This document shows positions 22,760 to 53,221 of a stretch of 64,000 nt of DNA, piece after piece. The stretch's first letter is position 1. Every line of letters begins with the position of its first letter. The stretch spans positions 7,386,655-7,450,654 of the forward strand of contig NC_134033.1 in NCBI RefSeq assembly GCF_964204645.1. The letters run 5' to 3'. The notes below the pieces were generated by a model. That model did no database searches and was not told where the DNA came from. It saw only the letters and a program-made list of their open reading frames with translations. The DNA is from Tubulanus polymorphus (Eukaryota; Animalia; Nemertea). The position numbers and the translations under genes were made by a program.

Positions 22760-25700
22760 TTGTGCGGGAGCTTCGTGCTCAAAAATAAGATATCGACATA
22801 CAAGGCAGTATGTCTCCGTTACAGCATCATCAAAATCTACCCTGCTCAAAGGAACGGTCGTCAATCGACAATACCGACGAACTTGAGTCTGAGATGGAAA
22901 AACCAATTTCTACTGACTGACGTACTGAACTGAACTAGCCATGCAGCAGAGGCCACGACACCGGCAATTTGTTTGTTCACTTTAAAGATGACTGATTTAT
23001 AATGCTGAATGAATGTGACACTAGATATAAGCAGTCAATTCAGTGGTAGAAAATTATTAGCCTATATGACAGGTAACTTTACTTACTTCACTTCAACTTC
23101 AATGTCTTTTAAAACTTGTGAACAGTAAATGAATACTTATTTACAAATATTCTGTTGATTGTCTATTGTAGGTCATTGTGTGTGTTCTGGTGTTGATTTT
23201 CTGAGATACAACTCAGGTTTTCTTAAGAATTAGAAGTAATACGCATTAAATTGAATGAGCTCAACATGCACAGAATGAATTGTTGTCTCATGGTAAGTTT
23301 GAAAAACGGATGAAACATGAATTGAAAAGTCAATCCAGGTTTAATTGTTAGTATATGTATATCGGTTTAATTTCAGAAAGTAACCTCAATCACGAATCAA
23401 AAAGATTAACGAATCCAGCATTAATCATCATGAAATTAATAACAAGTGGTGAAACTCCTCGATTCTGATATAGTGATGAGGTTTAAAGAGCTGGAATTTA
23501 TTAATAACTACACGAGCAAGCATGCAATTGGAACTGGGATTGGATTTAGGCCTACTTTCTGTTAAAGACTTGGTCTTTGTGATTCGAGTTAAGTTAGAGA
23601 TATCAGTGTCATTCTGTTGTCACACAATTTGCCATGTTACTAAATACGTATGTCACCATCTTGTCAGGCAGTCTGTATATTGAATAAGATTTTGTACTAG
23701 AAAGTGGATAATAAATATAAATAAGAGTTTGTCGTGATGGATTTTATACTCAATTTCTAGCGAAAATCATGTATGGTCCATGAGGAGAGGAAAATAATGC
23801 AAATATCCAGTTGATCTGAATTACAGTCTAGCCCAACTTGCTGTCTGTATCATCAGGAATATATGTAGCGATGCCGCGTTGGATCCAAATATCTGTTATC
23901 AAAAAACTGACAGGGAGTTTAACTATTGTAAACTTTATTCAGACTTTAGTCATTTTCACATCATCAGAAACACAACAATTGAGTGAATATATTTTACATA
24001 TGGTTGACAAAGAAACCATGTCGCCCTTCAGCCAAGTTCCCTCAGAATGACTATCACAGCTGATCCCTTTTCCTTACCTACAAAATTAATAAGTATCAAT
24101 TCAGTAGTGGCTATATTTGAATTCCGAGTAATATCAGCAGTTTAATTCGATACTCACAGCAATTAATGCCTTTTATTCGGTCTTTAAATTTCCGTTTGTT
24201 TGCTGATTACATTTATGATTCATAGATTATCAGCTGCCTTACTGTAATCAATCATTCCAGTGCGATTTTGATATTACTCTTAGTTTCGCTTATTCGATGA
24301 GACGCCCGGAAGTAAATCGATACTGACATGTTTGACATGCATCGAAAATGTGGGATGGGATCAACCGGTCTCTAACTGAAGGTAGAGACCGGCAACCAGT
24401 CTACAATTGAATGGGACAGGCAACCAGTCTACACATGAGTCATTCTGCAGATTAGACTGGTCGCCTGTCCAATTCTGCGCCACCCGCATTCGCAGTCAGA
24501 ATAGGACTTAGAGAATAGGTTTAACCCGTCCGCCATCTTCCGCAGAATATACGGATCCAATCAGATTTCAGTATTTCATCACGTGAACAATGTAACATGG
24601 ACGCCTCCAGAGTGTCTCGATTTACGTTCCACGGACCTCTTATAAGTCGATTTTTACATCAATGGAAGAAAGAAACTCGACCAAAACTATCAGGTAACGC
24701 TTCTACGAGAACCTGTACTGCGTGTGGCCTCGAAGATATCGGCATACAAGGCAGTACGTCTCCGTTACAGTACCATCAAAATCTACCCTGCTCGAAGGAA
24801 CGGTCGTCAATCGACAACAATACCGACGAACTTGAGAAATGGAAAACCAATTTCTACTGACTGACTTACTAAACTGAACCAGCCATGCAGCAGAGGCCAC
24901 GACACCGGCAATTTGTTTGTTCACTTAAGATGACTGATTGATTATGCTGAATTTGACACTAGAGGTGAAAATATTAGCCTATACGACAGGTACCTTCACT
25001 TCACTTCAATGTGTTTTAAAACTTGTGAACAATAAATGAATACTTATTTACAAATATTCTGTTGATTGTCTATAGTAGGTCATTGTGTGTGTTCTGATGT
25101 TGATTTTCTGAGATACAACTCAGGTTTTCTTAAGAATTAGAAGTTATACGTATTAAATTGAATGAGCTCAACATGCACAGAATGAATTGTCGTTGTAGAT
25201 GGTAAGTTTGAAAAACGGATGAAACATGAATTGAAAAGTCAATCCAGGTTTAATTGTTAGTATATGTATATCGTTTTAATTTCAGAAAGTAACCTCAATC
25301 ACGAATCAAAGAGATTAACAAATCCCGCATTAATCATCATGAAATTAGATTCCAAATAACAAGTGGTGAAACTCCTAGATTCTGATACAGTGATGAAGTT
25401 TAAAGAGCTGGAATTTATCAATAACTCACGAGCGAGCATGCAATTGGAATTGAGATTGGATTTAGGCCTACTTTCTAGTCAAGACTTTGTCTTTGTGATT
25501 CGAGTTAAGTTAGAGATATCAGTGTCGTTCTGTTGTCACACAATTTGCTATGTCACAAAATACGTATGTCACCGTCTTGTCAGGCAGTCTGTATATTGAA
25601 TAAGATTTTGTACTAGAAAGTGGACAATAAATATAGAATTGCCAGTGAAAAAGAGTTTGTCGTGATGGATTTTATACTCAATTTCTAGCAAAAATCATGT

Positions 25701-25780
25701 ATAGTCCATGAGGAGAGGAAAATATTGCAAATATCCAGTTGATCTGAATTACTGGTCTATTCCAACTTGCTGTCTGTATC
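22760..25780 (+). repeat. Local tandem duplication (~1.5-kb unit); second unit continues at 42204-42637 after the Polinton insertion
   Basis: 22760-24282 aligns by eye with 24720-25780 plus 42204-42637. Confidence 0.85.
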
Positions 25781-25875
25781 AGTAATTGGAAGATGGCGTT
25801 TTCAGGCCAGAGGGCGTGAGGGCGAGACATCCCACTCATCACCACAAGTAATTTTTTTTCTTAATAAATGGGAGA
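25781..25875 (+). repeat. Left TIR (~95 bp, includes polB start codon)
   Basis: Reverse complement of 42109-42203 with few mismatches. Confidence 0.95.
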
Positions 25876-28800
25876 CAGTGAGTTCCAAACAGAAAACAAT
25901 AATGTCAATAAAAATCAATATTATTGCCAATATTGTAAAAAATACATCGATACATCTCATAAAACACGGCATGAAAAAACTGCAAATCATATAAAAAATG
26001 TAATAGATTTTGAAACTCCAGAAAATTCTAATGAAAGAAAAGAACGATTAGAAAATATGAATGTGGATGAAATAAAATGTGAAGTTTGTAATGAATTTAT
26101 AGTAAAAAGGAATTATAATAGACATCTCGAATCACAAAAACATTATAAAAATTTAAATAAAAATGTTTTAGGATTAGAATATTTTGATAATAAACCTCAA
26201 CAAGTAAAAGAATCAACTTCAAAAACAAAATCCATTTCAAATAAACCTTACATGGAAAATGTTAGAAATTATATTGATTCACTAGAAATAAAAGATACAA
26301 TTGAAATTTTAGAAACATTACATAGTAAAATTGGTCCTGCAGCTATTATATTTAGATTCTTTAAAGGTACAACAATAGAAGATTATAGTAAATTTAATGA
26401 AATAATAGAAAAAATACTAGATTTGATAACAGATGTTGAATATCCAAAAATTAGTATCTCTGGGAAAGTAAGTTTTATAAAGTCAGAAGAAAAAATGGAT
26501 TATAATATTCAAACACACTCTGAAGAAATAATTTCAAAAACACAAATAAAAGAGAAGTTAGAAAAAATATTTAATGAATTTAAACGTCATATTGAAGAAA
26601 GATATTTTGAGGGTTCTGGCTTAACATTGAATGAAATTATATATTTAGATTTAAATGTTTATAATACAAAAAGAAATAAAACATCAAAAAGTAATAAAAT
26701 GTTTAAAAATGATTCAAACTTTATAACAGAAAAAGATATGAAAGCATCAAGTTATATCAAATTACCATTTATAACAAAAGCAGTAATAAATATTCAAAAT
26801 GAAGATAATAAATGTTTTCTATGGTCAATTATTAGTTGCTTACATCCAACAGAAGAACATGTTGATAGAATAACAGATTACCGGAAATATGAAACATTAT
26901 ATAAAATTGATCAATATCCAGTAACTATAAAAATGATTCCTAAAATAGAAAAAGTTAATAATTTAAAAATAAATGTATTCGAATTAATGCAATTACCAAA
27001 GACAAAAGGTGAAAATATTAAAGATTATACATTGGAAGCTTTATATTTAACTGAATATTATGATGATGAAAATGCTATAGATTTGTTATATTACAAAAAA
27101 GATGAAAATGAACATTATATGTGGTTAAAACAAATTGATTTATTCTTTAGAACAGAAAGTGATTTTAACAGCCATAAAATTTATCTATGTAGAAAATGTT
27201 TATCTAAATTTAGAACTGAGAATACATTATTAAAACATAAAGAATTATGTGATAATAAAGATTTTTGTAAATTAATAATGCCAACAGAAAAAGATTATAA
27301 ATTGAAATTTACTAATCATAAATTTAAAAATATTGTTCCATTTGTAATTTATGGGGATTTTGAATCATTGAATAAAGAATTAACTGATCAAGATAGAAAA
27401 GAAATATATAACAAAAAGCAATTATTAAAATCAATGGATAAAGGAAGTGAATTAAATGAAGACATAATACAAGACCCACCAATTATAAATACAATTAAAA
27501 AAGTTCATCAAAGAGCTGCTGCTTATGGAATTTATATAAAATCAAATTATCCCGAATTATATGAAAGTCAATATATTTCCTTTAGAGGTGAAAATGTAGT
27601 TAATGATTTTTGTGATAAAATGATGGAATTAGAAAGTGATTTTGCAAAATTATTAAACAAAAATAAAAGAATAGTTATGACAAAAGAAGATGAAATTGAT
27701 TTTAATTATGCAACTCATTGTTGTTACTGTGAAAAACGTTTTTATTCATTTGATAAAAAAGTTAGAGATCATAATCATTTGAATGGAAAGTTTAGAGGCG
27801 CTGCACATGAGAATTGTAATTTGCAAGCAAAGAAAATCAATTTTGTCCCCATTATATTTCACAATTTATCGGGGTATGATACCCATCTATTTATAAAACA
27901 ATTATCGGGAAAATTGGGTGCAATTAATCAAGAAATAGAAGAATATAATGCTATGAATGAAGCAAATGTAAGAAAATATGATTTTAAACTATTAGCTAAA
28001 ACATCTGAAAATTATATTTCATTTCAATTTGGTTGCATTAGATTTATAGATTCATATAGATTTTTAAATAGTTCATTAGATAATTTATCAAAAAGTTTAG
28101 TTGATAATGATTTTATTATAACTCGATATTATTATCCAAATGACCAAGATTTTAAATTATTGAGATATAAAGGCGCAATTCCTTATTCATTTTATAAAAC
28201 ACACGATGATTTCAAAGAAACGAAATTATTAAAAGATCAATTTTATGATAAATTAAAAGAGGAGTATGTGAAAGACGAAGTTTTTAATAGAACATTAAAT
28301 ATTTGGAACCATTTTAAGATGAAAAATCATGGTGAATTAGTTGATTTATATTTAAAATCAGATGTTATGATATTGGCTGACATATTTGAAAAATTTAGAG
28401 AAGTTAATTTGAATCATTTTAATGTTGATCCTTGTTATTGCTACTCTAGTCCTGGTTTAACCTGGCAATGTGGTTTAAAATATACAAATGTAGAATTAGA
28501 TTTATTAAAAGAACCAGATATGGTTTTATTATTTGAAAAATCAATTAGAGGTGGAATTAGTGGTGTTATGGGAGATAGGTATTTTAAAGCAAATGATGAA
28601 TATAAATTATTATATATTGATGCCAATAATTAATATGGTTGGGCAATGATGCAACCTCAACCATATAAAAATTTTATATTAACAGAAGTTGAAAATGGTG
28701 ATAAAACTGATTGGGAAAGCGCAATTATGAGTTTAGAAGATGAAGCACCAATTGGTTATTTCTTTGTAGTTGATTTAGAATATCCTGAAAATATAAAGTT

Positions 28801-30934
28801 TAAAACAAGAAACTTACCTTATTGCCCAGAACATTTAACTGTAGATGATAGTTATTTAAGTGAATACCAGAAGAAAATAAAACCGAAAGATCATGTTTTT
28901 ACAGAAAAATTAATACTTACTCAAAATAATAAATACAATTATATTGTTCATTATAGAATGTTAAAATTTTATCTAAAACAAGGAATGAAATTAAAGAAAG
29001 TACATAGATATATTGAATTTAATCAATCGAAGTGGTTAGAAAAATATATAGATTTCAATACTCAACAGAGAACCATATCAAAAACAGATTTTGAAAAAGA
29101 TTTCTTCAAATTAATGAACAATAGTTTTTATGGTAAAACATGTGAAAATATTAGAAATAGAAATGATATTGAATTAGTAAATAATTCTGAAAGATTAAGA
29201 CATTTACAATCAAGCCCCAGACATTTACAAAATAAAAGATTTGAAGATTATTTAACAGCAGTAAAATTAAAAAGAACATCTATGAAATTTAATAAACCAA
29301 TATTTATAGGTTCAACTGTTTTAGAAGTTTCAAAGCTATTGATGTATGATTTTTATTACAATGTATTACAACCATTGTTTGGGGAAAAACATATAGAAAT
29401 TCTATACTTCGATTCTGTAACAGCTGACACCCCAATATTATTAAAATACAATAACCAAATATTAATTAGAAGAATTTCAGAAATAATTCCTAATCAAAAT
29501 AAATCTTATATTTCGTATGGTGAAAAAGAACTAATACAAATAAATGGATTAATGGATGTTTGGACAAGAAATGGATGGAAAAAATTATATAATATTATTA
29601 GACATAAAACAAATAAGAAAATCTATAGAGTTAGAACTAAATTAGGATTTGTAGATGTTACAGAAGATCATAGTTTAATTAAACGAAATGGTGATGAAAT
29701 AAAACCAACTGATATAAAAATTGGAGATGAATTATTACACAACAGATTTTACCCAAGAATGAATCATATGTCATTTGATGAAATAATTGATAATATTTAT
29801 AATATAGAACCCGAAACATTAGAAGAAAAAGAATATTTTATCAAAGGATTTTTCATGGGTGATGGTTCAGCAGGTGTGTATAATTATGTTAGTGGAACTA
29901 AATATTGTTGGTATTTATGCAATCAAGACTTAAAATTATTAGAAAGAATTAAGAAATTCTGTGAAGAAGTTTATTCAAATAAAACATTCAAAATCATAGA
30001 TGTTATGAAATCATCGCAATGTTATAGAATACATGTGAATAATCCTAAAGATTTTGCTACAAAATATAATGATGAATTCTATATTCATACAATAGTGAAA
30101 AGTAATACTTCAACAAAAGAAAAGATAGTTCCAGATTATGTATTGAATGCAAAAAATAATTTAAGAAAATGGTTCTTCATTGGATTCTATGCAGCAGATG
30201 GTACTAAAAGTTTCAAAAACCGCAAAACAATATCTTTAGCTCAAAAAGGAAAAGTTGCTATATCAGGATTAAATATATTATGCAATTCATTAGGTTTTAA
30301 TATGAATATTGGATTGATTAAATCTAAACCAAATTGCTTTAATTTAAGCCATGTAGAAAAAGATTTAACTGAAGAAGTTAAAGATTTATTTGAAATATAT
30401 AACCCAACTGACTATGTTTATGATTTATCAACAGATGATGGAACATTCAATTCTGGGTTCCCATTAATCCAAAAAAATACTGACGCCTACATATTAAAAA
30501 TCAAGACAAATGATATAACAAAAGACTTAAAAACATTGAAACATTATTTCGACTTTAGCAATTACCCTAAAGATCATGAATTGTTTAGTAATGATAATAA
30601 AAAGATTCCTGGTAAGTTTAAAGATGAATTAGGAGGTGATGAAATGATTGAATTTGTTGGGATAAGAAGTAAAATGTATAGTTATAGAACAAAAGATCAT
30701 GAAGCTAAAAAGTTAAAAGGAATAACAAAACATGTGGTTGATAAACATATAGAATTTCAAGATTATATAAAGTGTTTATATAAATCAATTGTAATGAAAC
30801 ACAAAATGAATTGTTTAAGATCAGAAGATCATGAGATGTACATTAATGAAGTTGAAAAAACTAGTTTAAATCCATTTGATGATAAAAGGCATATTTTAGA
30901 TGATGGTATAAAAACATTACCTTATGGCCATTAA
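25868..30934 (+). pseudogene. polB: pPolB (zinc fingers, OTU-like protease, exonuclease with EndoVII/HNH-like insert, polymerase, intein) with one premature stop
   Basis: Single frame with TAA at 28631-28633, where copy 1 has TTA in YIDANNLYG. OTU-like NEDNKCFLWS...HY, ExoI GDFE, EndoVII-like CCYC...RDHNH...AHENCN, motif B KLMNNSFYGK, motif C LYFD/TDA split by the intein. Confidence 0.95.
29414..30478 (+). other. 355-aa intein with LAGLIDADG homing endonuclease
   Basis: Starts SVTADTPILL after YFD, block B VTEDHSL, GFFMGDG and GFYAADG, block F YVYDLST, ends IQKN followed by Thr+1 (TDA). Confidence 0.95.
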
Positions 30935-32232
30935 AACATAAAATCAATATCATCATACTCGAAATCACTATTGGCTTCTTCATTTTCATTTAATTGTTCA
31001 GGTTCTTCTTCCATTCCATTTTTCTCATTTAAATAAAGTTCTATCTTGTTCCACATTTCATCTCGCTCTCTTTGTTTCTTTTTGTTTGTTAATTCATCAA
31101 ATGGAATTATAATATCTAGGTTTAAATAATTTACAATCTTATTTAAAAAGAATTCATAATTTATTGAATCTGTTATTCTATTTTCCAAATGATACATTAA
31201 TATTTGTTTAAATATTTTTTTTATATTTTCCATATCTTCTTCTGTTAATTTAGGTTTTTCATAATAATCGTTAAATAATAAATATAAATACATTTTCTTT
31301 TCTTTTGTGTTAAATGTTGGTGGAATAATTGTTTTTATAATATCTTTTTTAGTTATTTCACCATTTTTATTTTCTATTATTTTCATTTTTTCAAGCCATT
31401 GTATATATTCTGGTGTATGATCTTCTATAGAAAATATTTTAAAAATTTCATCAAGATAATTTAATTTTGGATCTATAAGAAAATTTCTAGTTTTTTCTTC
31501 ATCCCATAAATTCTTTTGCCATCCACAATCAACACAAAATAACACAGTACCTTCTTGTCTTAAGGTCGCATAACTACATTGTGGACATTTTCGTTTATAA
31601 TTTATTGGTAATAGATCTTCATTAAGCTCTTGGTATTTTCTTACGTTTTCTTTATGTTTTATTGTTCTATTATGTAGATTTGAATTACTTGTTGTAATAA
31701 TCAATTTACAATATTTACAATAATATGTTTTTCTTGTTAATTCATTATATTGTTTTTCTAACTTTTCAACTGTTTCTTCATTATCTGGTAACGTTTTCTC
31801 ATATTTTATTTTTTCTAATAAATTATTTTTTCTTTCATTGAATTCAGTTTCAAATTTATTAGAAATTTTATCTATATGTACTTTACGAAATTGATGATTC
31901 TCCCAATCTTCTATATTTTCAGGGCTATATTTTACTAGACAAGGCTCGCAGAAATGATCTTTTATATTATCCTTATCATAGAATAAGAAAGGTCTTTTCC
32001 AAATAACTTCAGGTTCAACTTCAGCAGAATTACTATCAACATTAGCCATTGCGCCATTAATTCTACACTTCTCTGAATGTTTTTTAACATAATTTCTTGA
32101 GAATAATTGATTACATTTTGGGCAGTTTATTTTAGGGGGTTTATAATTTTCATCATGTTTTTTCATATGTCGAGCCTTATTACTTTTTCTTAGAAGTTCA
32201 CCACAAATTTCACATGCTATCTTCTCTTCCAT
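30931..32232 (-). CDS. Multi-zinc-finger protein with C-terminal VLTF3-like (poxvirus/NCLDV late transcription factor 3) domain
   Basis: N-terminal CxxC...H fingers, zinc ribbon CPQC...CVDCG, C-terminal PKLTEE..IF..I...INYEFFLNKI...D.MWNKI resembling the remembered VLTF3 consensus. Confidence 0.6.
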   Translation of the reverse strand: MEEKIACEICGELLRKSNKARHMKKHDENYKPPKINCPKCNQLFSRNYVKKHSEKCRINGAMANVDSNSAEVEPEVIWKRPFLFYDKDNIKDHFCEPCLVKYSPENIEDWENHQFRKVHIDKISNKFETEFNERKNNLLEKIKYEKTLPDNEETVEKLEKQYNELTRKTYYCKYCKLIITTSNSNLHNRTIKHKENVRKYQELNEDLLPINYKRKCPQCSYATLRQEGTVLFCVDCGWQKNLWDEEKTRNFLIDPKLNYLDEIFKIFSIEDHTPEYIQWLEKMKIIENKNGEITKKDIIKTIIPPTFNTKEKKMYLYLLFNDYYEKPKLTEEDMENIKKIFKQILMYHLENRITDSINYEFFLNKIVNYLNLDIIIPFDELTNKKKQRERDEMWNKIELYLNEKNGMEEEPEQLNENEEANSDFEYDDIDFMF

Positions 32233-32300
32233 TTATTTAAGAAAAATTTTATTAAAATTAATTTTTAGTGATGAGCGGTAATTTCTTTATGTTATAAATA

Positions 32301-33059
32301 ATGGTAGAATTAAAAGAATACAGAATATTTATAGATTCTAGAAGGCTTACAAATTATAAATCACATAATTTACTAGTACAATTAGATAGAGAATTTAAGA
32401 ATTGTGTAGATTTAAAATTAGTTAATATAAGTTTATGTAATTCTTTTTACAATATATCGAATAAAACTATTGAACATAATACTTTTTTAATTCATATTAG
32501 AAGTATAAATAAATGGTTTAATCTATTTCTAAGACCAGGATTATATAATTTAGAAACATTATCTCAAGAAATTAATCGTAGAGCACGATTAAAACTAAAA
32601 AGTGAAGATAAATTTTTAATAAGAGTTATAAAAAGTGATAGTTCTGGTAAAATTAAAATAAAGTTAGATGATGAAAACAAACATGCATTTATGGTAAAAA
32701 AACCTATAGCTAAATTGCTAGGAATTGCACCAGATATTGTTACAGGAAACGTAGAAGGTATTTCAAATATAATACCTTTTACACACTTTTATATTTATTG
32801 CAATTTAATCGATCCTACAAAAACATTCGAAGCAACTTAAGATATAACTTGTAATTCTGGTTTACTAAACATTTTACCATTGAAGAATGTTAAAGAATTT
32901 GGAACGCAAATAAATTATAATTTAACAGAATGTGATTTCAAACCATGCATTCCTCGTTTTAATAATTTTAGATTAGAAATTAGAAATCATAATGGATACT
33001 TAATTGATTTAAATAATTTCCCTGTAATTTATGAATTAGTTATAAGATGTAAAGAGTAA
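32301..33059 (+). pseudogene. Minor capsid protein (penton, single jelly-roll) with in-frame stop at 32838-32840
   Basis: Motifs PGLYN..L..EIN, LLGI, IYCNLID. The frame continues after the TAA to ...LEIRNHNGYLIDLNNFPVIYELVI, typical of Polinton pentons. Confidence 0.7.
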
Positions 33060-33075
33060 TTTTTTTGATATATAA

Positions 33076-33417
33076 ATGAATATAACTGTTGGACCGAGTA
33101 TATGTTTTGGATTTGATTTTAAACATGCTAAAGAAATGAGAATTAAACTAAATGATGTAATTACTGATATAAAAAGTAAATCATTTAACAATGCATCAAT
33201 GATTGATAAAGAAAATTATAATATAGAAAAAGTAATTGATTTAATTAAATCACCTTTAGAATATTATGAATTAAATGAAGATGGAATTATTGATGATATC
33301 AAAAACATATTATCCAAAATATATGATAATCATAAAACTAGTAATGAAATAAATGTTGAATTAATCATAAATAAGTTAACTAAATATTTTGAAGATAGTA
33401 ATTTTTTTGATAAATAA
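33076..33417 (+). CDS. Polinton hypothetical protein (113 aa)
   Basis: ORF with the element-wide ATAAATG start context. Confidence 0.65.
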   Translation: MNITVGPSICFGFDFKHAKEMRIKLNDVITDIKSKSFNNASMIDKENYNIEKVIDLIKSPLEYYELNEDGIIDDIKNILSKIYDNHKTSNEINVELIINKLTKYFEDSNFFDK

Positions 33418-33639
33418 ATGAGTGATAATAAGTGGATAATAACTGGATTATATAATGGCGCATTACTATCAGTTGGAACTGTTGGTTATTCAATGGTATT
33501 AAAAAAAGTATTCAAAATGGGAAGTGTTAATGTTGATAGATTTGATATAAATGATATTTTAAAGTTAACATTAGCAGTTACTTTATCTAATTTAACTATT
33601 GATTATTTGGAAAAACAAAAATATATTCCTCCCATATAA
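33418..33639 (+). CDS. Small hydrophobic/membrane protein (73 aa)
   Basis: ATAAATG start, two hydrophobic segments. Confidence 0.65.
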   Translation: MSDNKWIITGLYNGALLSVGTVGYSMVLKKVFKMGSVNVDRFDINDILKLTLAVTLSNLTIDYLEKQKYIPPI

Positions 33640-33663
33640 ATGCGTAATTTTTTTGTTAAATAA

Positions 33664-34086
33664 ATGGCTTCTGCAATTATAACTATTATAGGATCGGCAA
33701 TTGTTAACGCTTTAGCATTTACTGGTGGTGGTTATTTATTTAAACATATTGATAAAAATAGTTCATTAGGAGAACAAAGAAGACATAATTTAGCGTTAGA
33801 GAAATATAATAAAGCTGCAGAAGAATATAGAGAAAAGAGACAAAACTATATGGATTACATCAATAAAGAATTATATGATCAGAAGATTTCACATAGAGAT
33901 TTTCAATCAGTTGACGATGCAATGAGTTTATATAACGCAGTAACAAATAAAGAAAAATTACATCTATACAAACCTAAATTATCAGATTATTATACCCCGA
34001 GTAAAGAACAACAGAAATATGAAATAATTTAGATTTTAGGTGGAACTGTTATTGTTATATTTGTTGCTTATAAGTTTACTAATTAG
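33664..34086 (+). CDS. Membrane-associated Polinton protein, probable premature TAG at 34030-34032
   Basis: N-terminal hydrophobic helix and coiled coil. The frame continues after the stop into a TM segment ILGGTVIVIFVAY. Confidence 0.6.
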
Positions 34087-34105
34087 TAATTTTTATTCTA
34101 AATAA

Positions 34106-34540
34106 ATGGAAGATAAAGTTGATAGTATTGATATTATTCCTCATGATATAAATAAAACTAAATTAAAAATATATTTAGAAAAACAAATATTAGAATTTGA
34201 AAGTGACTTAAAGATAAAAAAGAAAAAATATTTAAAAAGTAAAATTATATATTATTTGATTATAAGTGGTTCGGTTACAATTAGTTCTGTAATAACATTT
34301 CTAGCAATATTCAGTCCATTAACACCTTTAGCTATATCAATTGGTGTGTTAGGATTAAGTTCAAGTGTTTTAACTGGTATAAGTTCAAAATTAAATATCA
34401 AAAGTAATAAAGAAAAAATAAAATCTAATATAAAAGAAATTAATAAATTAAAGAACACACTAGATTATATAATAAGTTTAAATGGTCATATAACAGTTGA
34501 AGAACAAGATAAATTATTAAAAGAATTAATAAATTATTAA
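34106..34540 (+). CDS. Two-TM membrane protein (144 aa)
   Basis: Two adjacent hydrophobic helices flanked by coiled coils, ATAAATG start. Confidence 0.7.
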   Translation: MEDKVDSIDIIPHDINKTKLKIYLEKQILEFESDLKIKKKKYLKSKIIYYLIISGSVTISSVITFLAIFSPLTPLAISIGVLGLSSSVLTGISSKLNIKSNKEKIKSNIKEINKLKNTLDYIISLNGHITVEEQDKLLKELINY

Positions 34541-34556
34541 TTTTTTAATTATATAA

Positions 34557-35939
34557 ATGGTAGATAGTTTTCCAAAAGCTTTCCAATATAATAAATCAAT
34601 TAAATATAATATTCCAGCAATAGATTTTAATAAAGATATTACATATAGAAATGAAGTTTTAGATTCATTAACTAATTTAGAAATTTATGTTACTGAAACT
34701 AATAATTTTAATGCAAAGATGGAAAATATATTTCATGTATATTTGATTAATTTTAAAAAATTGAAAGATGAAAAACAATGGTTATTAAAATCTAATATGA
34801 AGTATTGGCAGAACCAATTAAATTTTGCTGTTTATTGTGCAACAACAGGATGTGGAATTAGTTGGAATGATCATTTGAATAATTCTAAATATAAACTAAT
34901 TCAAAGTTTATTTAGATTTCATACATACTTTCAAATCAGAATAATATTAAATGAATTAGAGTGTGCTTTACCAGGATCTAGGTATTTTAAAGAATTAGAT
35001 AATAATATTAATTTATCTAAGTTTTATAACATTTGCAATGAATTTAATATAGATATAAATAATTCTGATTTTAGAATAAAAATTGGAACAATAAGATCAC
35101 TTCCTTGCCCTAAAAAGATTGCAGAATGTTGTGCACTTCCCATACCATCTAATAGTTTTTATAATATCTATAATAAAAAATTAGGTAATGGTAAAATAGA
35201 AACAAAGGATTTAGAAACATTAAATTTCAATAAATTACCGAAATTTTATGATAATTTAAAACAAGAAAACAATAATGGTTGGGTTTATTTTATTTTAGAA
35301 AATAGTGAAGGTTTTACAAAATCAGGTATAGAAAGAATAAATCAATCTATTAGAACTTATTTGATATGTATTTTAGGCGCCCAAGTTGAAACAAGATCAC
35401 CGATAATTGGAAATGATAACACTTCATTCGATACACAAAAACAATTTAAAGTTTTATTTGAAGATTCAATTCATAATGATAAAAATAGATCGATTCCAGA
35501 AAACATTATAAGATATCAAAATTATTTAGATAAATCTCATGTAAGACTTTATTATTGTATAGGCCCTAATCTATTAATTATTTCTAATGATTTAGTATTA
35601 AAGATGGGAAACATAATTGGTTATAATAATCTAATTAAAACTGCAACAATAAATAATTCATTTGGATTGAATGATATAAATAAAAAGATTATTACTGCCC
35701 CAAAATTAATGGAAGGTGAAAAAAATAAAAAACATATTCAATCAACAGAAACTAAAACTAAGAATATTAAATTGGTTAATGATTCTAAAATAAAAGATTA
35801 CAATACATCAGAAAATAATAGAACTGATAAAATTCAACATGATATAATTAAACAAAATGATGATAATAAATCCCATGAAAATACTAAATTAGCTATAACT
35901 TGTATAGGAATTGTAATCGGAGGAATATTATATTTTTAA
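34557..35939 (+). CDS. Conserved Polinton hypothetical protein (460 aa) with C-terminal TM anchor
   Basis: Long ORF, WQNQLNFAVYCATTGCG motif, hydrophobic C-terminus. Confidence 0.75.
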   Translation: MVDSFPKAFQYNKSIKYNIPAIDFNKDITYRNEVLDSLTNLEIYVTETNNFNAKMENIFHVYLINFKKLKDEKQWLLKSNMKYWQNQLNFAVYCATTGCGISWNDHLNNSKYKLIQSLFRFHTYFQIRIILNELECALPGSRYFKELDNNINLSKFYNICNEFNIDINNSDFRIKIGTIRSLPCPKKIAECCALPIPSNSFYNIYNKKLGNGKIETKDLETLNFNKLPKFYDNLKQENNNGWVYFILENSEGFTKSGIERINQSIRTYLICILGAQVETRSPIIGNDNTSFDTQKQFKVLFEDSIHNDKNRSIPENIIRYQNYLDKSHVRLYYCIGPNLLIISNDLVLKMGNIIGYNNLIKTATINNSFGLNDINKKIITAPKLMEGEKNKKHIQSTETKTKNIKLVNDSKIKDYNTSENNRTDKIQHDIIKQNDDNKSHENTKLAITCIGIVIGGILYF

Positions 35940-35961
35940 TTTTAATTTTTTTATTATATAA

Positions 35962-37388
35962 ATGGAAGTAGAAGGTGTAGAAGATATTGGAATGGATCCT
36001 TTTGATGAACCTGGTATAACTGATGAACAACCACCTGATTTTGATGAAACAAGTTTTAATGATGGTAATGAAACAGCATATAATTCTAATTTAACTACAC
36101 CTCAATATATTGACAAAACACGTTCAAAGATAAGTATTGAAAATGAAGTACCAGAAATAACAGAAAAAGAATACAATTATAATGAAATTATTCATGAATT
36201 TAAACCAAGATTAAAAAGATCTGGTTTCAATATAACAAATAAAGGTATGGATTATTTAGTAAAAGATTTAAAATATTTAAATGGTGATTATTATTGGAAA
36301 TTGAAAGGCGACTATTATTTTAAGATTTCAAATCTTAAAAGTAGCGATAAAATAATAACACAATCAACTTTTAATTTATTTAAACCAGATAGAATTAAGA
36401 AAATCATTGATGATGTTACAACTGATGTTACACAAGAAGAAAGAGATGATAATATAAAAGAATTTAAACAAAGAAATGCTAAATTTTTTGATATAATTAA
36501 TGCAAATTTAAGACAAAAAAAAATTCCTAAAGAAGTTATTAATTCCAAAACTAGTAAACCTAATTCAAGAGAAGTTCAAACTGAAAAACTTTTACCAAAT
36601 GGATTACTTGATGCAACAAATCAACAATTAGAAGATTTAGATATATTTTCTGATAAAGCAATTAGAGAAATTATTAGTATAAGAAATGAAGCTGATAAAA
36701 TTGCGCATGATAAAAGTATAAGAGATCAAAAAATTAGAACTTTAGAAAAAGAATTAACTGATAAAAATAAAGAAATAGAACAATTAAAGTCTGATTTAGA
36801 TCATCAAGTAATTGATGAAATAGAATATAAGCAAAAAGAATTACGTTTAGAAAAAGAAATAGATGATTTAAAATATATAACATAGAATTACAAAAAAAAG
36901 AAATTAAATTATTATTAAAATCATATGATTATAATATTGATAGATTAAAAGATGTTTTTAAAAGATATCTAATAAAACCAGATTCTAGAATATCATTGAA
37001 AGATAGAATAAAATTATTATTTAAGTTTGAAGGAATAACAATTCTTTCAATTCTAACAGCTGTAACTATGTTATTTACAACAATTGGTTTAGCAATATCA
37101 AATGCTTTGAAATCTACTCCTACTCCCAATAAACCGGATAAACCTCCAGGTAATAATTCTATACAAGATAAAGTTAAAGATGGTTTAAAGAAATTAGCAA
37201 AATATTTATGGGAACTATCAAAGAAATCTGCTGCAGCTTTACCAGGAGTTATTGCTTCAATTGTTGGTTTTATATTGAAATCTGCAGGAAACATTATTAA
37301 CTTTGCTGCTGAACATATTATTTTATTTTTAATTACAGTTGTAAGTGCTATTATTTTTGGGTTAGTAAACATGATAAAAAATAAATAA
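35962..37388 (+). pseudogene. Coiled-coil protein with C-terminal TM segments, frameshift near 36880
   Basis: ORFs 35962-36885 and 36996-37388 join through a single frameshift. The second ORF has no ATG start context of its own. Confidence 0.65.
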
Positions 37389-37408
37389 TTAATTTTTTTG
37401 TTAAATAA

Positions 37409-38656
37409 ATGAGTGGGAGTTATATAAGTCCTTCTAAGATTTCTAGAATATCTAATGCTATTAAAGCAGAAAGATCACATCATATAATTACTCATAACCC
37501 TTCAAATATTAATCCTGATGAAACTTTATACGTTAGAATCCCTCGATTAACACAAAATACTTTTTATGTTCCAAATAGTATTTATTTATTTGCCGATATA
37601 AAAGTAACCGGTAATAATAATAATTATGTCGTTGATAATGTTGGAAGATATTTGATTAAAAAGTTAACAATAAAGATTGGTCCAGAAACAGTTTTCTCAT
37701 TAGATGATTATAATTTATTTATGCATTATAAAGATTTATGGTTAACTAAAGAAAACAGAAATAATATGATATTTCAAGGAATCCAATCAGAAAACCAAAA
37801 TAAATTAAGATCAGAAGCTAATAGCGCAATATTAACAAATGATGTAGATAAATTGATAAAAAGTATATATGGAAGCAAATATAAAATTCCATTAGACTTT
37901 GAATTGATAAATAATAATGCACCTTTATATAAATACGCAATTCAAGAAGATATTATATTCGAGATAACATTTGCTCCTGTAAATGAAATTGTAATATCTA
38001 GCGTTAATAAAGATATGAGTTATAAATTATCGAATATATGTTTAGAATATGATACAGTAACTGATGAAAATATTGCTAGAACAATTCAAACTCAATACAA
38101 TCAAGGATTTTCATTATTATATGATTATATTGATAAATTTAAAACTGTAACTATTAATGCAAATGATGAAATAATAAATGAGAATATTAACTTTCCTAGA
38201 AGATCTATTAAAGGTATATTAATATTTTTTACTATTGGAACGTATACTAATGGCGCAATAAATGTTGACAATTATTATAATCCTGAAATAACAAAAGTAG
38301 AAATAACTATCGAAGGTATAGCAAATAAAATATTTTGTCAAGGAATGAGAATGATTGATCAATGGGTAGAAATTAAAAAACATTTTATGAATGAAAAAGT
38401 AAAATCATTTGAAAATTGTAACATTAATCAAATTGATTATTATACCGGTAATAAATTTGCATTATGGGTAGATTTTAGAACAACTGAAGATAATTCATTA
38501 CATGGTTCTGGGAAAAAATTACAAAATACAAAAGATGGGATCCAATTATTTATGAAAAAGAAAAAGGGAATCAAAAATTTTAAAATGCATATTTATATTA
38601 TATCTGACGCACAATTAAATATTGTAAATTCACAATTAGATAGTATTCAATATTAG
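37409..38656 (+). CDS. Major capsid protein (double jelly-roll)
   Basis: 415 aa, beta-rich, placed before integrase/ATPase. THNPS.I.P.E.L.VR.P and LWVDFRT.ED..LHGSG motifs recalled from adintovirus-type MCPs. Confidence 0.75.
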   Translation: MSGSYISPSKISRISNAIKAERSHHIITHNPSNINPDETLYVRIPRLTQNTFYVPNSIYLFADIKVTGNNNNYVVDNVGRYLIKKLTIKIGPETVFSLDDYNLFMHYKDLWLTKENRNNMIFQGIQSENQNKLRSEANSAILTNDVDKLIKSIYGSKYKIPLDFELINNNAPLYKYAIQEDIIFEITFAPVNEIVISSVNKDMSYKLSNICLEYDTVTDENIARTIQTQYNQGFSLLYDYIDKFKTVTINANDEIINENINFPRRSIKGILIFFTIGTYTNGAINVDNYYNPEITKVEITIEGIANKIFCQGMRMIDQWVEIKKHFMNEKVKSFENCNINQIDYYTGNKFALWVDFRTTEDNSLHGSGKKLQNTKDGIQLFMKKKKGIKNFKMHIYIISDAQLNIVNSQLDSIQY

Positions 38657-38686
38657 AAATATAAAGTTAAAATTAAGGATATATAA

Positions 38687-39814
38687 ATGAGTGGTAAAAA
38701 AACTCCTAATACTAAAGAACAATATTTAAGAAATTTATATTACAACCCTGAGAGTTCGGTTGCTTATTCTTCTACTAAAAATATATGGCGTAAAGTAAAA
38801 CAAGATAAATTAGATAAGATAATCCCACAAAATTTAGTTAAATACAAAGATATAAATGAATTTATGTTAGAACAACCAACATATACAACACATAAAAAAA
38901 TTGTTAGAAAATATAAAACTCGTAAAACTATGGTAAGTTATGTAGATCAACAGTGGCAAGGAGATTTAATTGATATGAAAAATCTTAAAAAAGATAATAA
39001 TGATTATTGGTGGATATTGAATATAATTGATATTTTTAGTCGTTATGTATGGAGCTTCCCACTTTATAGAAAAGATGCTGCACAAACATCACATGTTTTA
39101 AGAAAATTTCTTTCAGGTGGTAAACTAAAACCAGAAAAAATTCAATTTGATGATGGAAAAGAATTTGATAATTCATTAGTTCATGGACTTTTAGATTTTC
39201 ATAATATTAAATATTTTTCAACAAAATCGGATAAAAAAGCAGCAGTTGTTGAACGATTTAATAGAACATTGAGAACAAGAATATCAAAATATTTCACAGC
39301 AAATAATACTTATAAATGGATTGATGTTTTACCAAAATTTATAGAAGGATATAATAATTCTTATCATTCTTCTATTGGAATGAAATCTATTGATGCTAGA
39401 AAACCTGAAAATGCTGAAATTGTTTGGAATAATTTATATGGAGCATTTCTTGTAGATGATTTTGGTGAACCTAAATTTAAAGTTGGTCAAAATGTTAGAA
39501 TTTCTAAGTATAAAAAGATATTTGACAAAGGATACGATCGAAATTTTACTAGAGAAATATATAAAATAAAAAAGGTAATAACAACAAAACCATATGTCTA
39601 TAAATTAGAAGATTTAGATGGTGAAGAAGTTGATGGATATTTTTATGAAGAAGAATTAAGTTTAACTACTGAAAATCTAGAACAAGAATATAAAATTGAA
39701 AAAGTACTAAAAACAAAAACTGTTAAAAGAAAAAAATATTCTTTAGTAAAATGGGTTGGATGGCCAGATAAATTTAATGAATGGATATTATCAAGTAAAA
39801 TTAAAAATATATAA
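38687..39814 (+). CDS. Retroviral-like (rve) integrase with C-terminal chromodomain
   Basis: DDE triad WQGDLID / FDDGKEF / VERFNRT, chromodomain YKIEKVL...LVKWVGWP..FNEW. Confidence 0.93.
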   Translation: MSGKKTPNTKEQYLRNLYYNPESSVAYSSTKNIWRKVKQDKLDKIIPQNLVKYKDINEFMLEQPTYTTHKKIVRKYKTRKTMVSYVDQQWQGDLIDMKNLKKDNNDYWWILNIIDIFSRYVWSFPLYRKDAAQTSHVLRKFLSGGKLKPEKIQFDDGKEFDNSLVHGLLDFHNIKYFSTKSDKKAAVVERFNRTLRTRISKYFTANNTYKWIDVLPKFIEGYNNSYHSSIGMKSIDARKPENAEIVWNNLYGAFLVDDFGEPKFKVGQNVRISKYKKIFDKGYDRNFTREIYKIKKVITTKPYVYKLEDLDGEEVDGYFYEEELSLTTENLEQEYKIEKVLKTKTVKRKKYSLVKWVGWPDKFNEWILSSKIKNI

Positions 39815-40423
39815 ATGAATAAGGAATTATTCATATTTGAGCCTCATAATATGTTAATTTCTGGTGTAACAAATTGTGGAAAAACTTATTTTATATTACA
39901 TTTATTAGAAACTGTTTATGAAAACTATTTTGATAATATAGTATTATTTTTTCCAACATATGAATTTAATCAAACTTATGATAGAAATATTACTAGAAAT
40001 AATAAATTTATTATATTAGATCCTAAAACAGTAAAAGAAAATTTAGATAATTGTATAAAAATAGCAATTGATATTTATAAAGGATCAAATACATTATTCA
40101 TTATAGATGATTGTGCTAATCTACATGATTCAAAAGTTAGAGAAAGTGAGTTATGTTATTTAGCTTTTTCTGGTAGACATTTTGGGATAACAACATGGGT
40201 TTTAAATCAAAAATATAATTCAATTGTTAAAGACTTTAGAGAAAACATTAGATTTCTAGTTTTATTCTACAATAAAGATAGAAAATCAATGAAAAATGCA
40301 CTTGAGGAAAATGATATTATTCCACATGATTTACATAATGAATATATGGATAAGTTGAAAAATATTAAAAGATCAAAATTACTATTTAGATTACAACACC
40401 CATTTAAATATGAATTTATTTAA
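39815..40423 (+). CDS. A32/FtsK-like DNA packaging ATPase
   Basis: Walker A GVTNCGKT, Walker B FIIDD, GRH and Q motifs. Confidence 0.92.
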   Translation: MNKELFIFEPHNMLISGVTNCGKTYFILHLLETVYENYFDNIVLFFPTYEFNQTYDRNITRNNKFIILDPKTVKENLDNCIKIAIDIYKGSNTLFIIDDCANLHDSKVRESELCYLAFSGRHFGITTWVLNQKYNSIVKDFRENIRFLVLFYNKDRKSMKNALEENDIIPHDLHNEYMDKLKNIKRSKLLFRLQHPFKYEFI

Positions 40424-40680
40424 ATTCAACTAGCTTGTTAATCTAGTTGAATTCTAGTTATTGGTAGTTGTAACAAAAATCAAATAGATTTAACAATATT
40501 TTAACTAGCTTGTTAATCTAGTTTAATTCTAGTTACATTCTAATTGAATTCTAGTTGTTAGTAGTTGAAACAAAAATCAACTAGATTTAACAAGAAATAA
40601 ACAAAAACACTAATATTTCAACTAGCTTGTTAATCTAGTTGAATTCTAGTTACATTCTAGTTAAATTCTAGTTGCAACAT
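40424..40680. repeat. Intergenic CTAG-rich repeat array with short hairpins
   Basis: Three copies of AACTAGCTTGTTAATCTAGTT plus many TTCTAGTT units. Confidence 0.8.
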
Positions 40681-40707
40681 CACACAATTAATTTTTTTGT
40701 TATATAA

Positions 40708-41313
40708 ATGGTAGGTGAAAAGAAAATAAAATCTAAAAATGGTGATGTTCCAATTGAAAAAACTTTAGATGATTTAGGAATAACAGAAACAAAATTAATT
40801 CCAGATGATGGTGCTTTAAATAATGTTACAACAAATAATAATTATGAATATTATCTTTATTGTAAACATCAATTAGAAATATTAATAGCATCTGGAAAAT
40901 GTAAAAATTTTGTTAGTAAAAATTTAACTTATAATGAATTAGACACAATGAAATCAGATGAAATTATTAGATTATTTAAGATTTATGAAGCCGCGAGAAC
41001 AGCTAGAATTAATGACGCGATATCAGAAAATGTAGTAAAAGGTTATAGTAAATTATGTAATTATATACTACCAATTGAAGATGAAAATAGATTATATTCT
41101 GATTTAAAAAATGATTATTTAGTTATGACTGAATTAAATAAATGGATTGGATATTTATCATTTCAATTAGGTGGATTTATGACATTATTATCAACTGGAG
41201 TTATAACATTTTCAAATATTGAAAGTAAAAATATTTCTATAATAAATGAGCGAGGTGAAAGAAGTGAAGGAATTAATTGTGAAGAAAAAACCGAGAACTC
41301 AGAAACAAATTGA
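40708..41313 (+). CDS. Polinton hypothetical protein (201 aa)
   Basis: ORF with TAATTTTTTTGTTATATAAATG start context. Confidence 0.7.
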   Translation: MVGEKKIKSKNGDVPIEKTLDDLGITETKLIPDDGALNNVTTNNNYEYYLYCKHQLEILIASGKCKNFVSKNLTYNELDTMKSDEIIRLFKIYEAARTARINDAISENVVKGYSKLCNYILPIEDENRLYSDLKNDYLVMTELNKWIGYLSFQLGGFMTLLSTGVITFSNIESKNISIINERGERSEGINCEEKTENSETN

Positions 41314-41623
41314 ATGGTCTCGACAATTAGGAATTAAATCACAAGAATATAAAAAAGCTGTAAAAGAAAAAATAAGTAGTAAAAATGTTAATAAAAATTG
41401 TGAAAATATTGTTATTTCTACTCCTTCTGATAGTAGAATATTTGATAAATATTTATATTTTACAGTTGGATTTGTAATTGTATTCATTTTGATTGGGTGT
41501 AATTGGTATAAGAAATCAAATAAAATTCATGATATTAGTAATTCTGAACCAACTGCTATCAAAAATGAAAGTACTTCTGAAATTTCAAAATTGACAATAA
41601 AAAAAAATGGATTAATATTTTAG
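41246..41623 (+). CDS. Basic single-TM protein (125 aa)
   Basis: ATAAATG start, TM segment YLYFTVGFVIVFILIGC. Confidence 0.65.
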   Translation: MSEVKEVKELIVKKKPRTQKQIEWSRQLGIKSQEYKKAVKEKISSKNVNKNCENIVISTPSDSRIFDKYLYFTVGFVIVFILIGCNWYKKSNKIHDISNSEPTAIKNESTSEISKLTIKKNGLIF

Positions 41624-41790
41624 AAAAAAAGCAAAAAAAAATAATTTTTTTTTAATTAATTGAATATTAATTGAATATTAATTGAATATCTCACTACTTT
41701 TGTCTATCTATGAGGAGCAATTAAATTGTCCAGATAAGTCATTTCGGATTCTAGATATTCATTATTTTTATTAATTTATTTTTTTTAAAC

Positions 41791-42116
41791 TTAATCAACA
41801 ATTTCTAAATCATGATGACCGTCTTCATTTTTTCCATGATAGATTATTTTAAATCCTTCTAAATCTTTTAATTCCTCTGTACTCAATGAAACCCATTTAT
41901 CAGGTAAAAATACTTTAAATTCTCGCGATGTACTAACATTACAGTAACTTAAATTAGCTGATACTTTCTCTCCATATTTAGTTTTTATCTTTTCTAATTT
42001 CAATATTTTATGTTCAATTTCTTTTGTAACATCAACTAACTTTTTTATTTCAAATTGTTTTTTGCTGGTTTTATTCTGTTATTTATTGTTGCTAAGAATG
42101 CTTTTCTATCTCCCAT
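41791..42116 (-). pseudogene. Small terminal gene starting inside the right TIR, frameshifted in an A-run near 42060
   Basis: MGDRKAFLATINNRIKPAK joins after one frameshift to QFEIKKL...KTKYGEKV...VFLPDKW (ORF 41791-42003). Confidence 0.6.
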
Positions 42117-42203
42117 TTATTAGGGAAAAAAATTACTTGTGGTGATGAGTGGGGTGTTTCGCCCTCACGCCCTCTGGCCTGAAAACGCCATCTTCCAATT
42201 ACT
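42109..42203 (-). repeat. Right TIR
   Basis: Inverted copy of 25781-25875. Confidence 0.95.
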
Positions 42204-42765
42204 TGTATCATCAGGAATATATGTAGAGATGCCGCGTTGGATCCAAATATTTGATATCAAAAAACTGACAAGGAGTTTAACTATTGTAAACTTTATTCAG
42301 ACTTAAATCATTTTCCCATCATCAGAAACACAACAATTGAGTGAATATATTTTGCATATGGTTGACAAAGAAACTATGTCGCCCTTCAGCCAAGTTCCCT
42401 CAGAATCACTATCACAGCTGATCCTTTTCCTTACCTACAAAATTAATAAGTATCAATTCAGTAGTGGCTATTTGAATTCCGAGTAATATCAGCGGATTAA
42501 TTCGATACTAACAGCAATTAATGTCTTTTCTTCGGTCTTTAAATTTCCGTTTGTTTGCTGATTACATTTATGATTCATAGATTATCAGCTGATTTACTGT
42601 AATCGATCATTCCAGTGCGATTTTGATATTACTCTTAAGGCGTTTTTATGAGCATGCGTACTCGATTCCGAGTACGTATTTCGATTACCTGCCGGGTAAG
42701 ACCGAGTACATACCCGGGTAGCCAGTTCCCATAAACGCACCTGAGTATGCACCCAGTGTTTCAAA

Positions 42766-44145
42766 ATGGCGGCAACTTCGCACGAGGAGAGGCAACGACA
42801 ACGAAGAAAATTAGCAGTTACTCTTGCACTTGATGTTTCACTCGAGAGCGGCATTCAACATGCAGTTAATTTATACGGGACAATTCAATCGAAAATGTTG
42901 AACGGATCGGAGGAAGCCTACCTTTATGATGAATTTATGAAATATGCCAAGGATCGAAATGTATGTCGAGTAGATATTTATTTAACAACAACAGTTCCAC
43001 GGTACTCGGACGAAGATTTCCGCAAGAGATTTCGTATGAACAGAGAGACTTTCCATCGTTTTTCAGAATACGTTTCTCCTAACATCGATACAGAAAATGA
43101 AATCAATGACTACAAAATAACTATACCAAAGGATACACAGTTGTAGGTGTTCATACATTATGCGGCAACAACGGACTCGTTGATCAGAATAGCTGATCTC
43201 TATGGGATATGCGAAGCGTCAGAATTCAACATCGTTGGTAAGTATTTTTAACAAATAGTCTAATATTATATTCAACCTATAAGCTGCTATTCCTAAATTT
43301 TTTTGGTTGAATTTTCAGGACTCATATCCACGATTTTGGTGAAGTATGTGATGGAAAAGGTAGTAACATGGCCCAAGGGAGAATATGCAGCTACAGTGAT
43401 GGAGGGTTTCGAACAGAAGAAAGGCTTTCCGAAAGTAATTGGCGCAGTTGAAGGTACCCATATTCCCATAAAGACACCAACAGATAGCCCGGAGGTTTAT
43501 ATCAACAGAAAAAAGTTTCATTCTTTGAATGTATGCGCCGTTTGCGATCATCAGTACAAATTTACGCAGGTTTATGTAGGATGGCCTGGTTCCAGCCACG
43601 ATGCCCGTGTCTTTAATAACTGCCCGATAAGCATTACTGCAGAGCGTCAGGATAATCGTCAAGCAATATTTCCGCAGAATTCGCATCTTCTCGGTGACTC
43701 GGCTTATGAACTCAGAGAATATGTAATGGTACCGTTCAAAGATACAGGTGGTTTAACAAGAAATCAAAAGGATTATAATTTCAAACACAGCGTTACTCGT
43801 GTTCCGATTGAAAATGCCTTTGGCATCTTGAAAGGGCGTTTAAGAAGACTGAAGTATGTTAATATGCACTATATGGAAAGACTTGTGACATTTGTTACTA
43901 GTTGTTTTGTTCTACACAACATCTGCCTCGAGACTGGCGATACATTAGAAGATCGGTTTTTAGAATTTGGAATGAATTTGCAACATAACCATGATATGCA
44001 TGAAATATATATCGCTAATATGGCTAACAGGCCATCAGCAGTAGGCAAGAGACAAGCACAATATCAGTTCTTTTGTCCACATTTGGCTAGGCTAAATTAT
44101 ATCATGCTTGAACAGTCTGTACAGAACCATTTTGTAGCATTTTAG
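42766..44145 (+). pseudogene. Harbinger (HARBI1-like) DDE transposase
   Basis: FRKRFRMNRETF, IGAVEGTHIP, GSSHDARV, LLGDSAY, RVPIENAFGILKGR. Phase-1 intron 43238-43318, in-frame TAG at 43144-43146. Confidence 0.88.
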
Positions 44146-45700: not shown

Positions 45701-45947
45701 TACTCCCCCAAGCCGTAAAATATCGTCCTCGATATCTCAAAGTGTATCTGAACAAATCGTACACGAACTGGGACAGCATAAGAAGAAGAATAAAATGTCA
45801 AGGCCAACAACAACTGATTTCAGCAGTCAACCACATGATACAATAAACGATACAACAACACGTTCCCTCCCCCCTTTTTTTTGATAGTTTTTTTAATTTT
45901 CTTCTTATATCATATTGCATATACTAAACGAGTTTACATGCTACACT

Positions 45948-53120: not shown

Positions 53121-53221
53121 TTTACTGTCCTCGAACTTTTCTCTCAGTTTCTGATGGCATTCTATGATCAGCTTTACGCGCCTTTCGACATCTCAACTGT
53201 ACCTTGTGGCCGTACTGTTTC

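Follow-up and report, generated by a model that had tools for sequence, protein, structure and literature searches.

The question raised by the Polinton-type element at 25781..42203 of a 64,000-nucleotide stretch of the Tubulanus polymorphus genome (contig NC_134033.1, positions 7,386,655 to 7,450,654; the whole stretch is here called the window) is whose machinery transcribes its genes. The favoured reading, in which about even confidence is placed, is that the element belongs to a Polinton family whose intact members depend for transcription on a co-infecting virus of poxvirus type, which would supply RNA polymerase and late factors. A single promoter class, the lack of an RNA polymerase of its own, a promoter with poxvirus-late geometry and a late factor of poxvirus type together fit such a helper. 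The link between this promoter and Polintons appears to be new; VLTF3 in Polintons and entomopoxvirus-associated Polinton-like viruses (PLVs) have already been published.

TAAATG was found at 13 of 14 gene starts and at 34 of the remaining 631 ATGs (p 4e-16, binomial). The start motif is bipartite, with TAA at -16..-14 set at a constant distance from a T-tract and the TAAATG that follows it; of the 13 starts, 7 read AATAAATG and 6 read TATAAATG. T occupies -10 in 12 of these 13 starts, AA occupies -15/-14 in all of them, and TTT at -11..-9 is present at 10, compared with 3 of 33 internal TAAATG sites (p 1.6e-5). The motif is present in both terminal inverted repeats (TIRs), and eight of 12 same-strand intergenic gaps measure 0-30 nt and contain little else; stop and start codons are directly joined at 2 of the 13 TAAATG starts. 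According to a review of vaccinia and mpox genes (PMC11980589), TAAAT(G) overlaps the start codon in vaccinia late promoters, and a T located 10 nt upstream among other Ts is conserved; the element promoter matches this geometry, a match to the late promoter of a helper being a mark of virophage-like elements. The single start motif that the original prediction had placed on nearly all genes was therefore recovered in a sharper form than first claimed. AT-richness was rejected as an explanation for the motif (5% under the null, and still present at 44% GC), and so was stop-start coupling as a general one (2 of 13 starts only). AATAAA depletion, 3' AATAAA and upstream TATA were also compared, and none separated motif-positive from motif-negative Polintons; TTTTTNT was depleted in clade A (observed/expected 0.35) but also in the motif-negative elements (0.59-0.68), and was not used as evidence. 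A literature search limited to main texts found no report tying TAAATG promoters to Polintons, and passage searches in 10.1101/2024.03.23.586382, PMC12220804, 10.64898/2026.10.13.758929 and PMC4542343 gave nothing on this promoter.

The late factor is encoded by a 433-aa open reading frame (ORF). The whole ORF gave no Pfam match; its C-terminal 211 residues (205-415) matched PF04947 (E 5e-6, 26.7 bits, cut-off 25), and Atlas returned a score of 0.93 with VLTF3 in 27 of 30 matches. Searching this region against 1.84 billion representatives yielded 4 matches, three of which are Polinton-like proteins of 281-697 aa with 39-48% identity. For two of these three, the longest contigs of the VLTF3 relative and of a homolog of the major capsid protein (MCP) are of equal size (16,883 and 12,994), which suggests that these two relatives sit in related Polintons. 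The fourth match, P0302 (226 aa), combines an A2L zinc ribbon with PF04947 and is 63% identical to a gene on a 232-kb, 17%-GC virus contig, which we take to be an entomopoxvirus on account of its size and composition. An alignment-based model of the VLTF3 region (pLDDT 79) returned cowpox, an unnamed entry and two entomopoxvirus VLTF3 proteins as its top four Foldseek matches, with giant-virus VLTF3 ranking lower. Since P0302 was part of the alignment behind this model, the independent check is a Polinton-only profile, under which two pox-type proteins reached 51 and 43 bits and the scores of three VLTF3 proteins from giant viruses fell below zero. Zinc ribbon, PF04947 domain and fold of the VLTF3/poxvirus A2 family are all present, so the VLTF3-like ORF noticed earlier is confirmed, and by its sequence similarity and modelled fold the protein is of poxvirus type and not of giant-virus type. 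A word-index search with the VLTF3 region gave no match; its single-sequence fold was poor (pLDDT 50), with VLTF3 ranking only weakly; no VLTF3 domain was found in 27 motif-bearing loci, which are partial; and the pox-type VLTF3 alignment found no relative in viral_contigs. Available sections of the literature place VLTF3 in a subset of polintoviruses (PMC11131425) and, in a legend entry, in MELD viruses (PMC8502044).

The distribution of the start motif was surveyed in 80 metagenome loci with related MCPs, and an MCP tree was obtained by a quick search on 58 rows (the window and loci with an MCP of at least 190 aa), on which the TAAATG label was clustered (0 of 500 shuffles as low). In groups of hand-picked, mostly non-redundant loci, drawn after the counts and the tree had been seen, the capsid clade to which the element belongs (GC 0.19-0.44) had TAAATG at 49 of its 59 starts. 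The corresponding figure was 21 of 23 for a second capsid set, which shares the T-tract, 8 of 11 for a third set and 2 of 136 for the motif-negative capsid lineages. The motif is kept at 40-44% GC (L006, L007), and L083, an unrelated protease-bearing element, carries TAAATG at 7 of 8 starts. The promoter is thus conserved and lineage-specific and not routine in all Polintons; the earlier concern that the same traits might be routine in helper-independent Polintons did not hold for the motif. No RNA polymerase subunit family was detected in 28 accessory ORFs of motif-bearing loci. Two further observations were made on these loci: at L083:2740-4251 an integrase is apparently fused to an N-terminal cysteine-protease-like region (judged by eye), and deoxynucleoside kinase genes occur in TAAATG-type relatives (L003:10343-10981 and L007:2898-3380), where such a kinase would suit replication away from nuclear nucleotide pools.

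The features of the element, in window coordinates, are as follows.

25775..25780, plus strand: left target-site duplication (TSD) TGTATC, single copy at the empty site
25781..25878, plus strand: left TIR (AGT start), holding the T-tract and TAAATG start of pPolB
25868..30934, plus strand: protein-primed PolB (pPolB) with N-terminal zinc fingers, premature stop at 28631-28633
29414..30478, plus strand: LAGLIDADG intein of 355 aa in polymerase motif C
30931..32232, minus strand: 433-aa ORF with zinc fingers at its N-terminus and, fused to them, a poxvirus-type VLTF3 (A2) domain (about residues 205-415, nt 30988-31620)
32301..33059, plus strand: minor capsid (penton) candidate, stop at 32838-32840, the sole start without TAAATG
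33076..34540, plus strand: four small ORFs (113, 73, 122 and 144 aa), all with TAAATG starts
34557..35939, plus strand: 460-aa ORF without Pfam family, conserved in related Polintons
35962..37388, plus strand: coiled-coil and membrane-type ORF, frame split by a stop at 36883-36885 (one 485-aa frame in the L003 homolog)
37409..38656, plus strand: MCP, 415 aa
38687..39814, plus strand: rve integrase with C-terminal chromodomain (PF00665, E 1e-8)
39815..40423, plus strand: A32-type packaging ATPase (PF04665, E 2e-12)
40442..40674, no strand: non-coding, short imperfect repeats (families D4 and D6)
40708..41623, plus strand: two ORFs (201 and 125 aa) with TAAATG starts, conserved in relatives
41791..42116, minus strand: right-end ORF remnant with the TIR motif in front, frame broken near 42,057
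42106..42203, minus strand: right TIR (ACT end), which also carries the start motif
42204..42209, plus strand: right TSD TGTATC

The pPolB matched Polinton-type loci by tblastn, and its relative P0146 matches PF03175 (E 5e-17). Polintons are expected to have a double jelly-roll MCP and a single jelly-roll minor capsid protein. Capsid_N matched the MCP weakly, below cut-off, in 23 of 30 aligned relatives. The minor capsid candidate was picked by size and position, its best PDB match being weak (E 0.07), and its homolog in the related locus L003 is a single 254-aa frame. The 122-aa ORF ends early at 34030-34032, and the 144-aa ORF is weakly SLATT-like. No protease family was matched among the 16 ORFs that were scanned (E 0.1).

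The original prediction described a complete TIR- and TSD-bounded element, and the anatomy stands, with TIRs, TSD, empty site and pPolB, rve and A32 genes all in place; completeness does not, as the copy carries five breaks (stops at 28631, 32838, 34030 and 36883 and the frame break near 42,057) and so cannot be autonomous. At the first, third and fifth breaks (28631, 34030, ~42,057) the reads of other copies carry a different sequence, and L003 has longer uninterrupted frames at the second, third and fourth (32838, 34030, 36883), so the family is not uniformly broken. The element is a 16.4-kb island of 20-26% GC amid DNA of ~35-40% GC, with TIRs of 98 nt each (complementarity 95%). The repeat that flanks it has a second copy at 22787-24282 with only one TGTATC (near 23,845), a preserved empty site, and the empty-site joint 25774->42204 was found in 3 of 4 public read runs; the TGTATC duplication was therefore made by the insertion. 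Read depth in run X5, from which copy number was estimated, was ~170-1000 over the element (one bin 32) and ~4 in the last flank bin, which suggests tens to hundreds of related copies, the flank itself possibly not being single-copy.

Within the window, a second copy of the same family lies on the minus strand at 1-4300 (~94% identical, intein present). It contains frameshifts and an internal deletion, and its TIR, which differs in part, keeps the start motif. At 62226-62493 there is a near-perfect hairpin of 268 bp whose AGT...ACT ends are Polinton-like (arms of 129 nt, 90%), followed directly at 62537-64000 by a pPolB of 73% identity that starts at TAAAATG. Other mobile elements neighbour the element: a PIF/Harbinger-type transposase (DDE_Tnp_4) adjoins it on the right at 42745-44145, and an apparently intact long terminal repeat (LTR) retrotransposon occupies 45141-53121 (561-bp repeats, 99.8% identical; gag with a zinc knuckle and a 1263-aa pol on the minus strand). 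By context, the host is eukaryotic and animal-like, and one MCP relative of named origin comes from a bivalve.

The intein, also correctly noted in the original prediction, is intact at motif C, where it lies between YFD and TD; both LAGLIDADG motifs, the terminal Ser and Asn, the block B His and Thr at +1 are present, as expected for splicing and endonuclease function. The best 120 of 463 matches comprise 4 Polinton-type polymerases (41-63% identity) and 116 RNA-primed PolBs, mimivirus among the latter at 37%; a PolB intein in giant-virus bin G003 stands at 41%. A tree was built on 114 rows, with 7 omitted for unparsed ends; in it the four pPolB inteins sit together on one side of a branch, with support 100 and a stem of 0.73. 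The intein is absent from 8 of 8 metagenome loci that cover the site, including the TAAATG-bearing L006, L037, L053 and L075. On this sequence evidence the intein appears to be the product of one old exchange with giant-virus-type polymerases and of patchy spread among Polintons thereafter, and is no pointer to a present helper. Of the three independent traits once offered for a helper, promoter and VLTF3 are borne out and the intein is not, as its clade is old and confined to Polintons and TAAATG relatives lack it. In the pPolB cluster P0147 (136 members), proteins of 1537 and 1191 aa differ by a length equal to that of the intein, as would fit alleles with and without it, a possible case of homing within one Polinton family; homing endonuclease and intein invasions of Polinton pPolB are treated in the available part of PMC11161782.

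Under the favoured reading of a poxvirus-type helper, the element, with no RNA polymerase and one promoter class even on pPolB, integrase and VLTF3, would stay silent until the late phase of the helper, when pPolB, capsid and ATPase would be made and protein-primed replication would proceed from the TIRs, followed by self-packaging and reinsertion through the rve integrase. More speculatively, the zinc-finger-fused VLTF3 might replace or compete with the helper's factor and draw late transcription to element promoters, which have the extra near-invariant TAA at -16..-14. The scheme offers no account of first contact, between a nuclear copy and a cytoplasmic polymerase. The proposed tie to a giant DNA virus is partly supported, with the helper more likely to be poxvirus-type than a giant virus. 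A role in host defence is possible by analogy with endogenous mavirus-like elements (EMALEs), although the copy at 25781..42203 alone could not provide it. A wider proposal, that widespread animal Polinton lineages are poxvirus virophages with all their genes under a poxvirus late promoter and with a captured, zinc-finger-fused VLTF3 diverting helper late transcription, is tentative and held with clearly less than even confidence; if true, promoter type would sort Polintons into helper-dependent and helper-independent ones and would point to undiscovered invertebrate poxviruses. A lineage-specific promoter of poxvirus-late geometry makes the helper question testable. It also predicts which Polintons should be activated by infection, and suggests that poxvirus-like viruses may exist in hosts from which none is known.

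Several results weigh against a poxvirus-type helper. The comparison of pox-type with giant-virus VLTF3 uses 2 and 3 sequences, with no tree, and the relatives of the intein are RNA-primed PolBs such as that of mimivirus, not those of poxviruses. The distribution of the motif over the capsid tree is patchy and forces at least 5 changes, for which repeated switches of lifestyle would be needed. TAAATG starts are not unique to poxviruses, being present at 12 of 32 starts in the non-pox giant-virus bin G002 (L100, L105, L107) and 6 of 32 in G001 (G003, 2 of 32), and the entomopoxvirus-like L103 has TAAATG at 5 of 13 starts with T at -10 in only 2 of those 5; the fixed promoter geometry was seen in none of G001, G002, G003 and L103. 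No helper genome was found, in searches that covered viral contigs but no whole host genome, and an exact-promoter scan of viral_contigs gave 19 matches, 1 of them at an ORF start (L100). Nor were transcripts found, in data that do not bear on expression. Many nuclear copies have also been reached, for which no helper is required. Finally, the VLTF3 model weakly resembles TFIIB, its top PDB match (Z 6.5, root-mean-square deviation 4.2, 93 aligned) lying within the chance range, and this likeness would allow use with host RNA polymerase II.

That last point leads to an autonomous element, in which a factor and promoter style taken from a poxvirus long ago now serve a nuclear promoter, the VLTF3-like protein recruiting host RNA polymerase II to it in the manner of TFIIB. 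The modelled zinc ribbon and cyclin-like helices would suit such a role, and the gene has been kept in several Polintons at 39-48% identity. Poxvirus VLTF3, however, acts with the viral RNA polymerase and other late factors. With the VLTF3 gene, pPolB and integrase all behind the same promoter there is also no early class to start a cascade, the motif abuts the ATG at fixed distance with hardly any 5' leader, and the domain was not found in the 27 partial motif-bearing loci, so that autonomy is regarded as unlikely. The helper could instead be a Nucleocytoviricota virus other than a poxvirus with TAAATG at its late-gene starts, as the G002 starts with their AT-rich upstream runs would allow, and as might the allelic position of the intein relative to giant-virus PolB inteins (41% G003, 37% mimivirus). 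In G002, however, the geometry is not fixed (T at -10 in 5 of 12 TAAATG starts, TTT in 2 of 12), the element VLTF3 is unlike giant-virus VLTF3 by sequence, and one Polinton intein clade on a long stem makes the contact ancient; a helper of this kind is distinctly unlikely.

It has finally to be asked whether transcription is simply that of the host, with TAAATG as a habit of the lineage (the context of the start codon, a stop codon or poly(A) signal that overlaps the following start, or the relic of a lost helper) and VLTF3 and intein as passengers. The 7 of 13 starts that read AATAAATG, the two direct stop-start junctions and the many nuclear copies agree with this, as does the description of VLTF3 as a patchy accessory gene of coral polintoviruses in the available text of PMC11131425. 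The motif also stands, however, before genes with no same-strand gene upstream (pPolB in the TIR and the VLTF3 gene), 6 of 13 starts read TATAAATG, and the -16..-7 block is fixed in spacing and persists at 44% GC. AATAAA occurs near the stop of 0 of 10 long ORFs (2.6 expected) and 60 times inside coding strands, in tests that did not separate motif-positive from motif-negative elements. Ordinary host transcription is considered quite improbable, and a poxvirus-type helper is retained as the preferred reading.

Among known systems, Maverick/Polinton elements ('adintoviruses'; PMC8502044, sections available) share AG...CT TIRs, a 6-bp TSD, pPolB, rve integrase, A32 ATPase, probably the MCP, and an animal-type host with this element, in which TIRs with the 6-bp TSD, pPolB (with a stop), rve integrase and A32 ATPase are all found; VLTF3 is reported in a subset of them (PMC11131425, PMC8502044). 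The element differs in its single poxvirus-late-type promoter on nearly all genes, in a poxvirus-type VLTF3 fused to zinc fingers, in a full LAGLIDADG intein at motif C and in the cysteine protease, which was not found in the 16 ORFs scanned (E 0.1); most Group 1 members have an adenovirus-type cysteine protease, according to the accessible part of 10.64898/2026.06.19.733378. With the motif-C inteins of mimivirus and other giant viruses it shares the insertion site, Ser start, Asn end, Thr at +1 and two LAGLIDADG motifs, whereas its host protein is a protein-primed PolB, it falls in a separate Polinton clade and it is 37% identical to the mimivirus intein. TAAAT over the start codon, T at -10 and an A2-type domain are shared with the poxvirus late system; the element, by contrast, is without RNA polymerase or any other late factor and has added TAA at -16..-14.

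Entomopoxvirus-associated PLVs (AHEV_PLV1/2 and CBEV_PLV1; PMC11296320, available text) are likewise Polinton-type; they have been put forward as hyperparasites of poxviruses with which they exchange genes. They are ~12 kb long, come from occlusion bodies and have a protease and either a tyrosine recombinase or no detected integrase, whereas the present element is integrated and of rve type, without a physical link to a helper; the words 'promoter', 'VLTF' and 'intein' do not occur in the main text of that paper. Of the earlier description as virophage-like, the helper-type promoter match stands and the taxonomic part, which would call for a virophage-type MCP and a maturation protease, does not: the PDB includes virophage capsids, none of its chains is matched by the MCP profile at E 1, and no protease was found in the 16 ORFs scanned. 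MCP searches of viral_contigs gave no relative. Mavirus and EMALE04 of Cafeteria (PMC10945749, sections available) differ in their virophage capsid lineage, protist host, mimivirus-family helper and experimental proof, where the helper here would be deduced from sequence. They share with the element pPolB and rve integrase, many integrated copies and a match to a helper's late promoter, and in that system promoter matching, also treated in the accessible part of 10.1101/2025.10.09.676808, predicts which endogenous virophages the Cafeteria virus CroV reactivates (PMC10945749).

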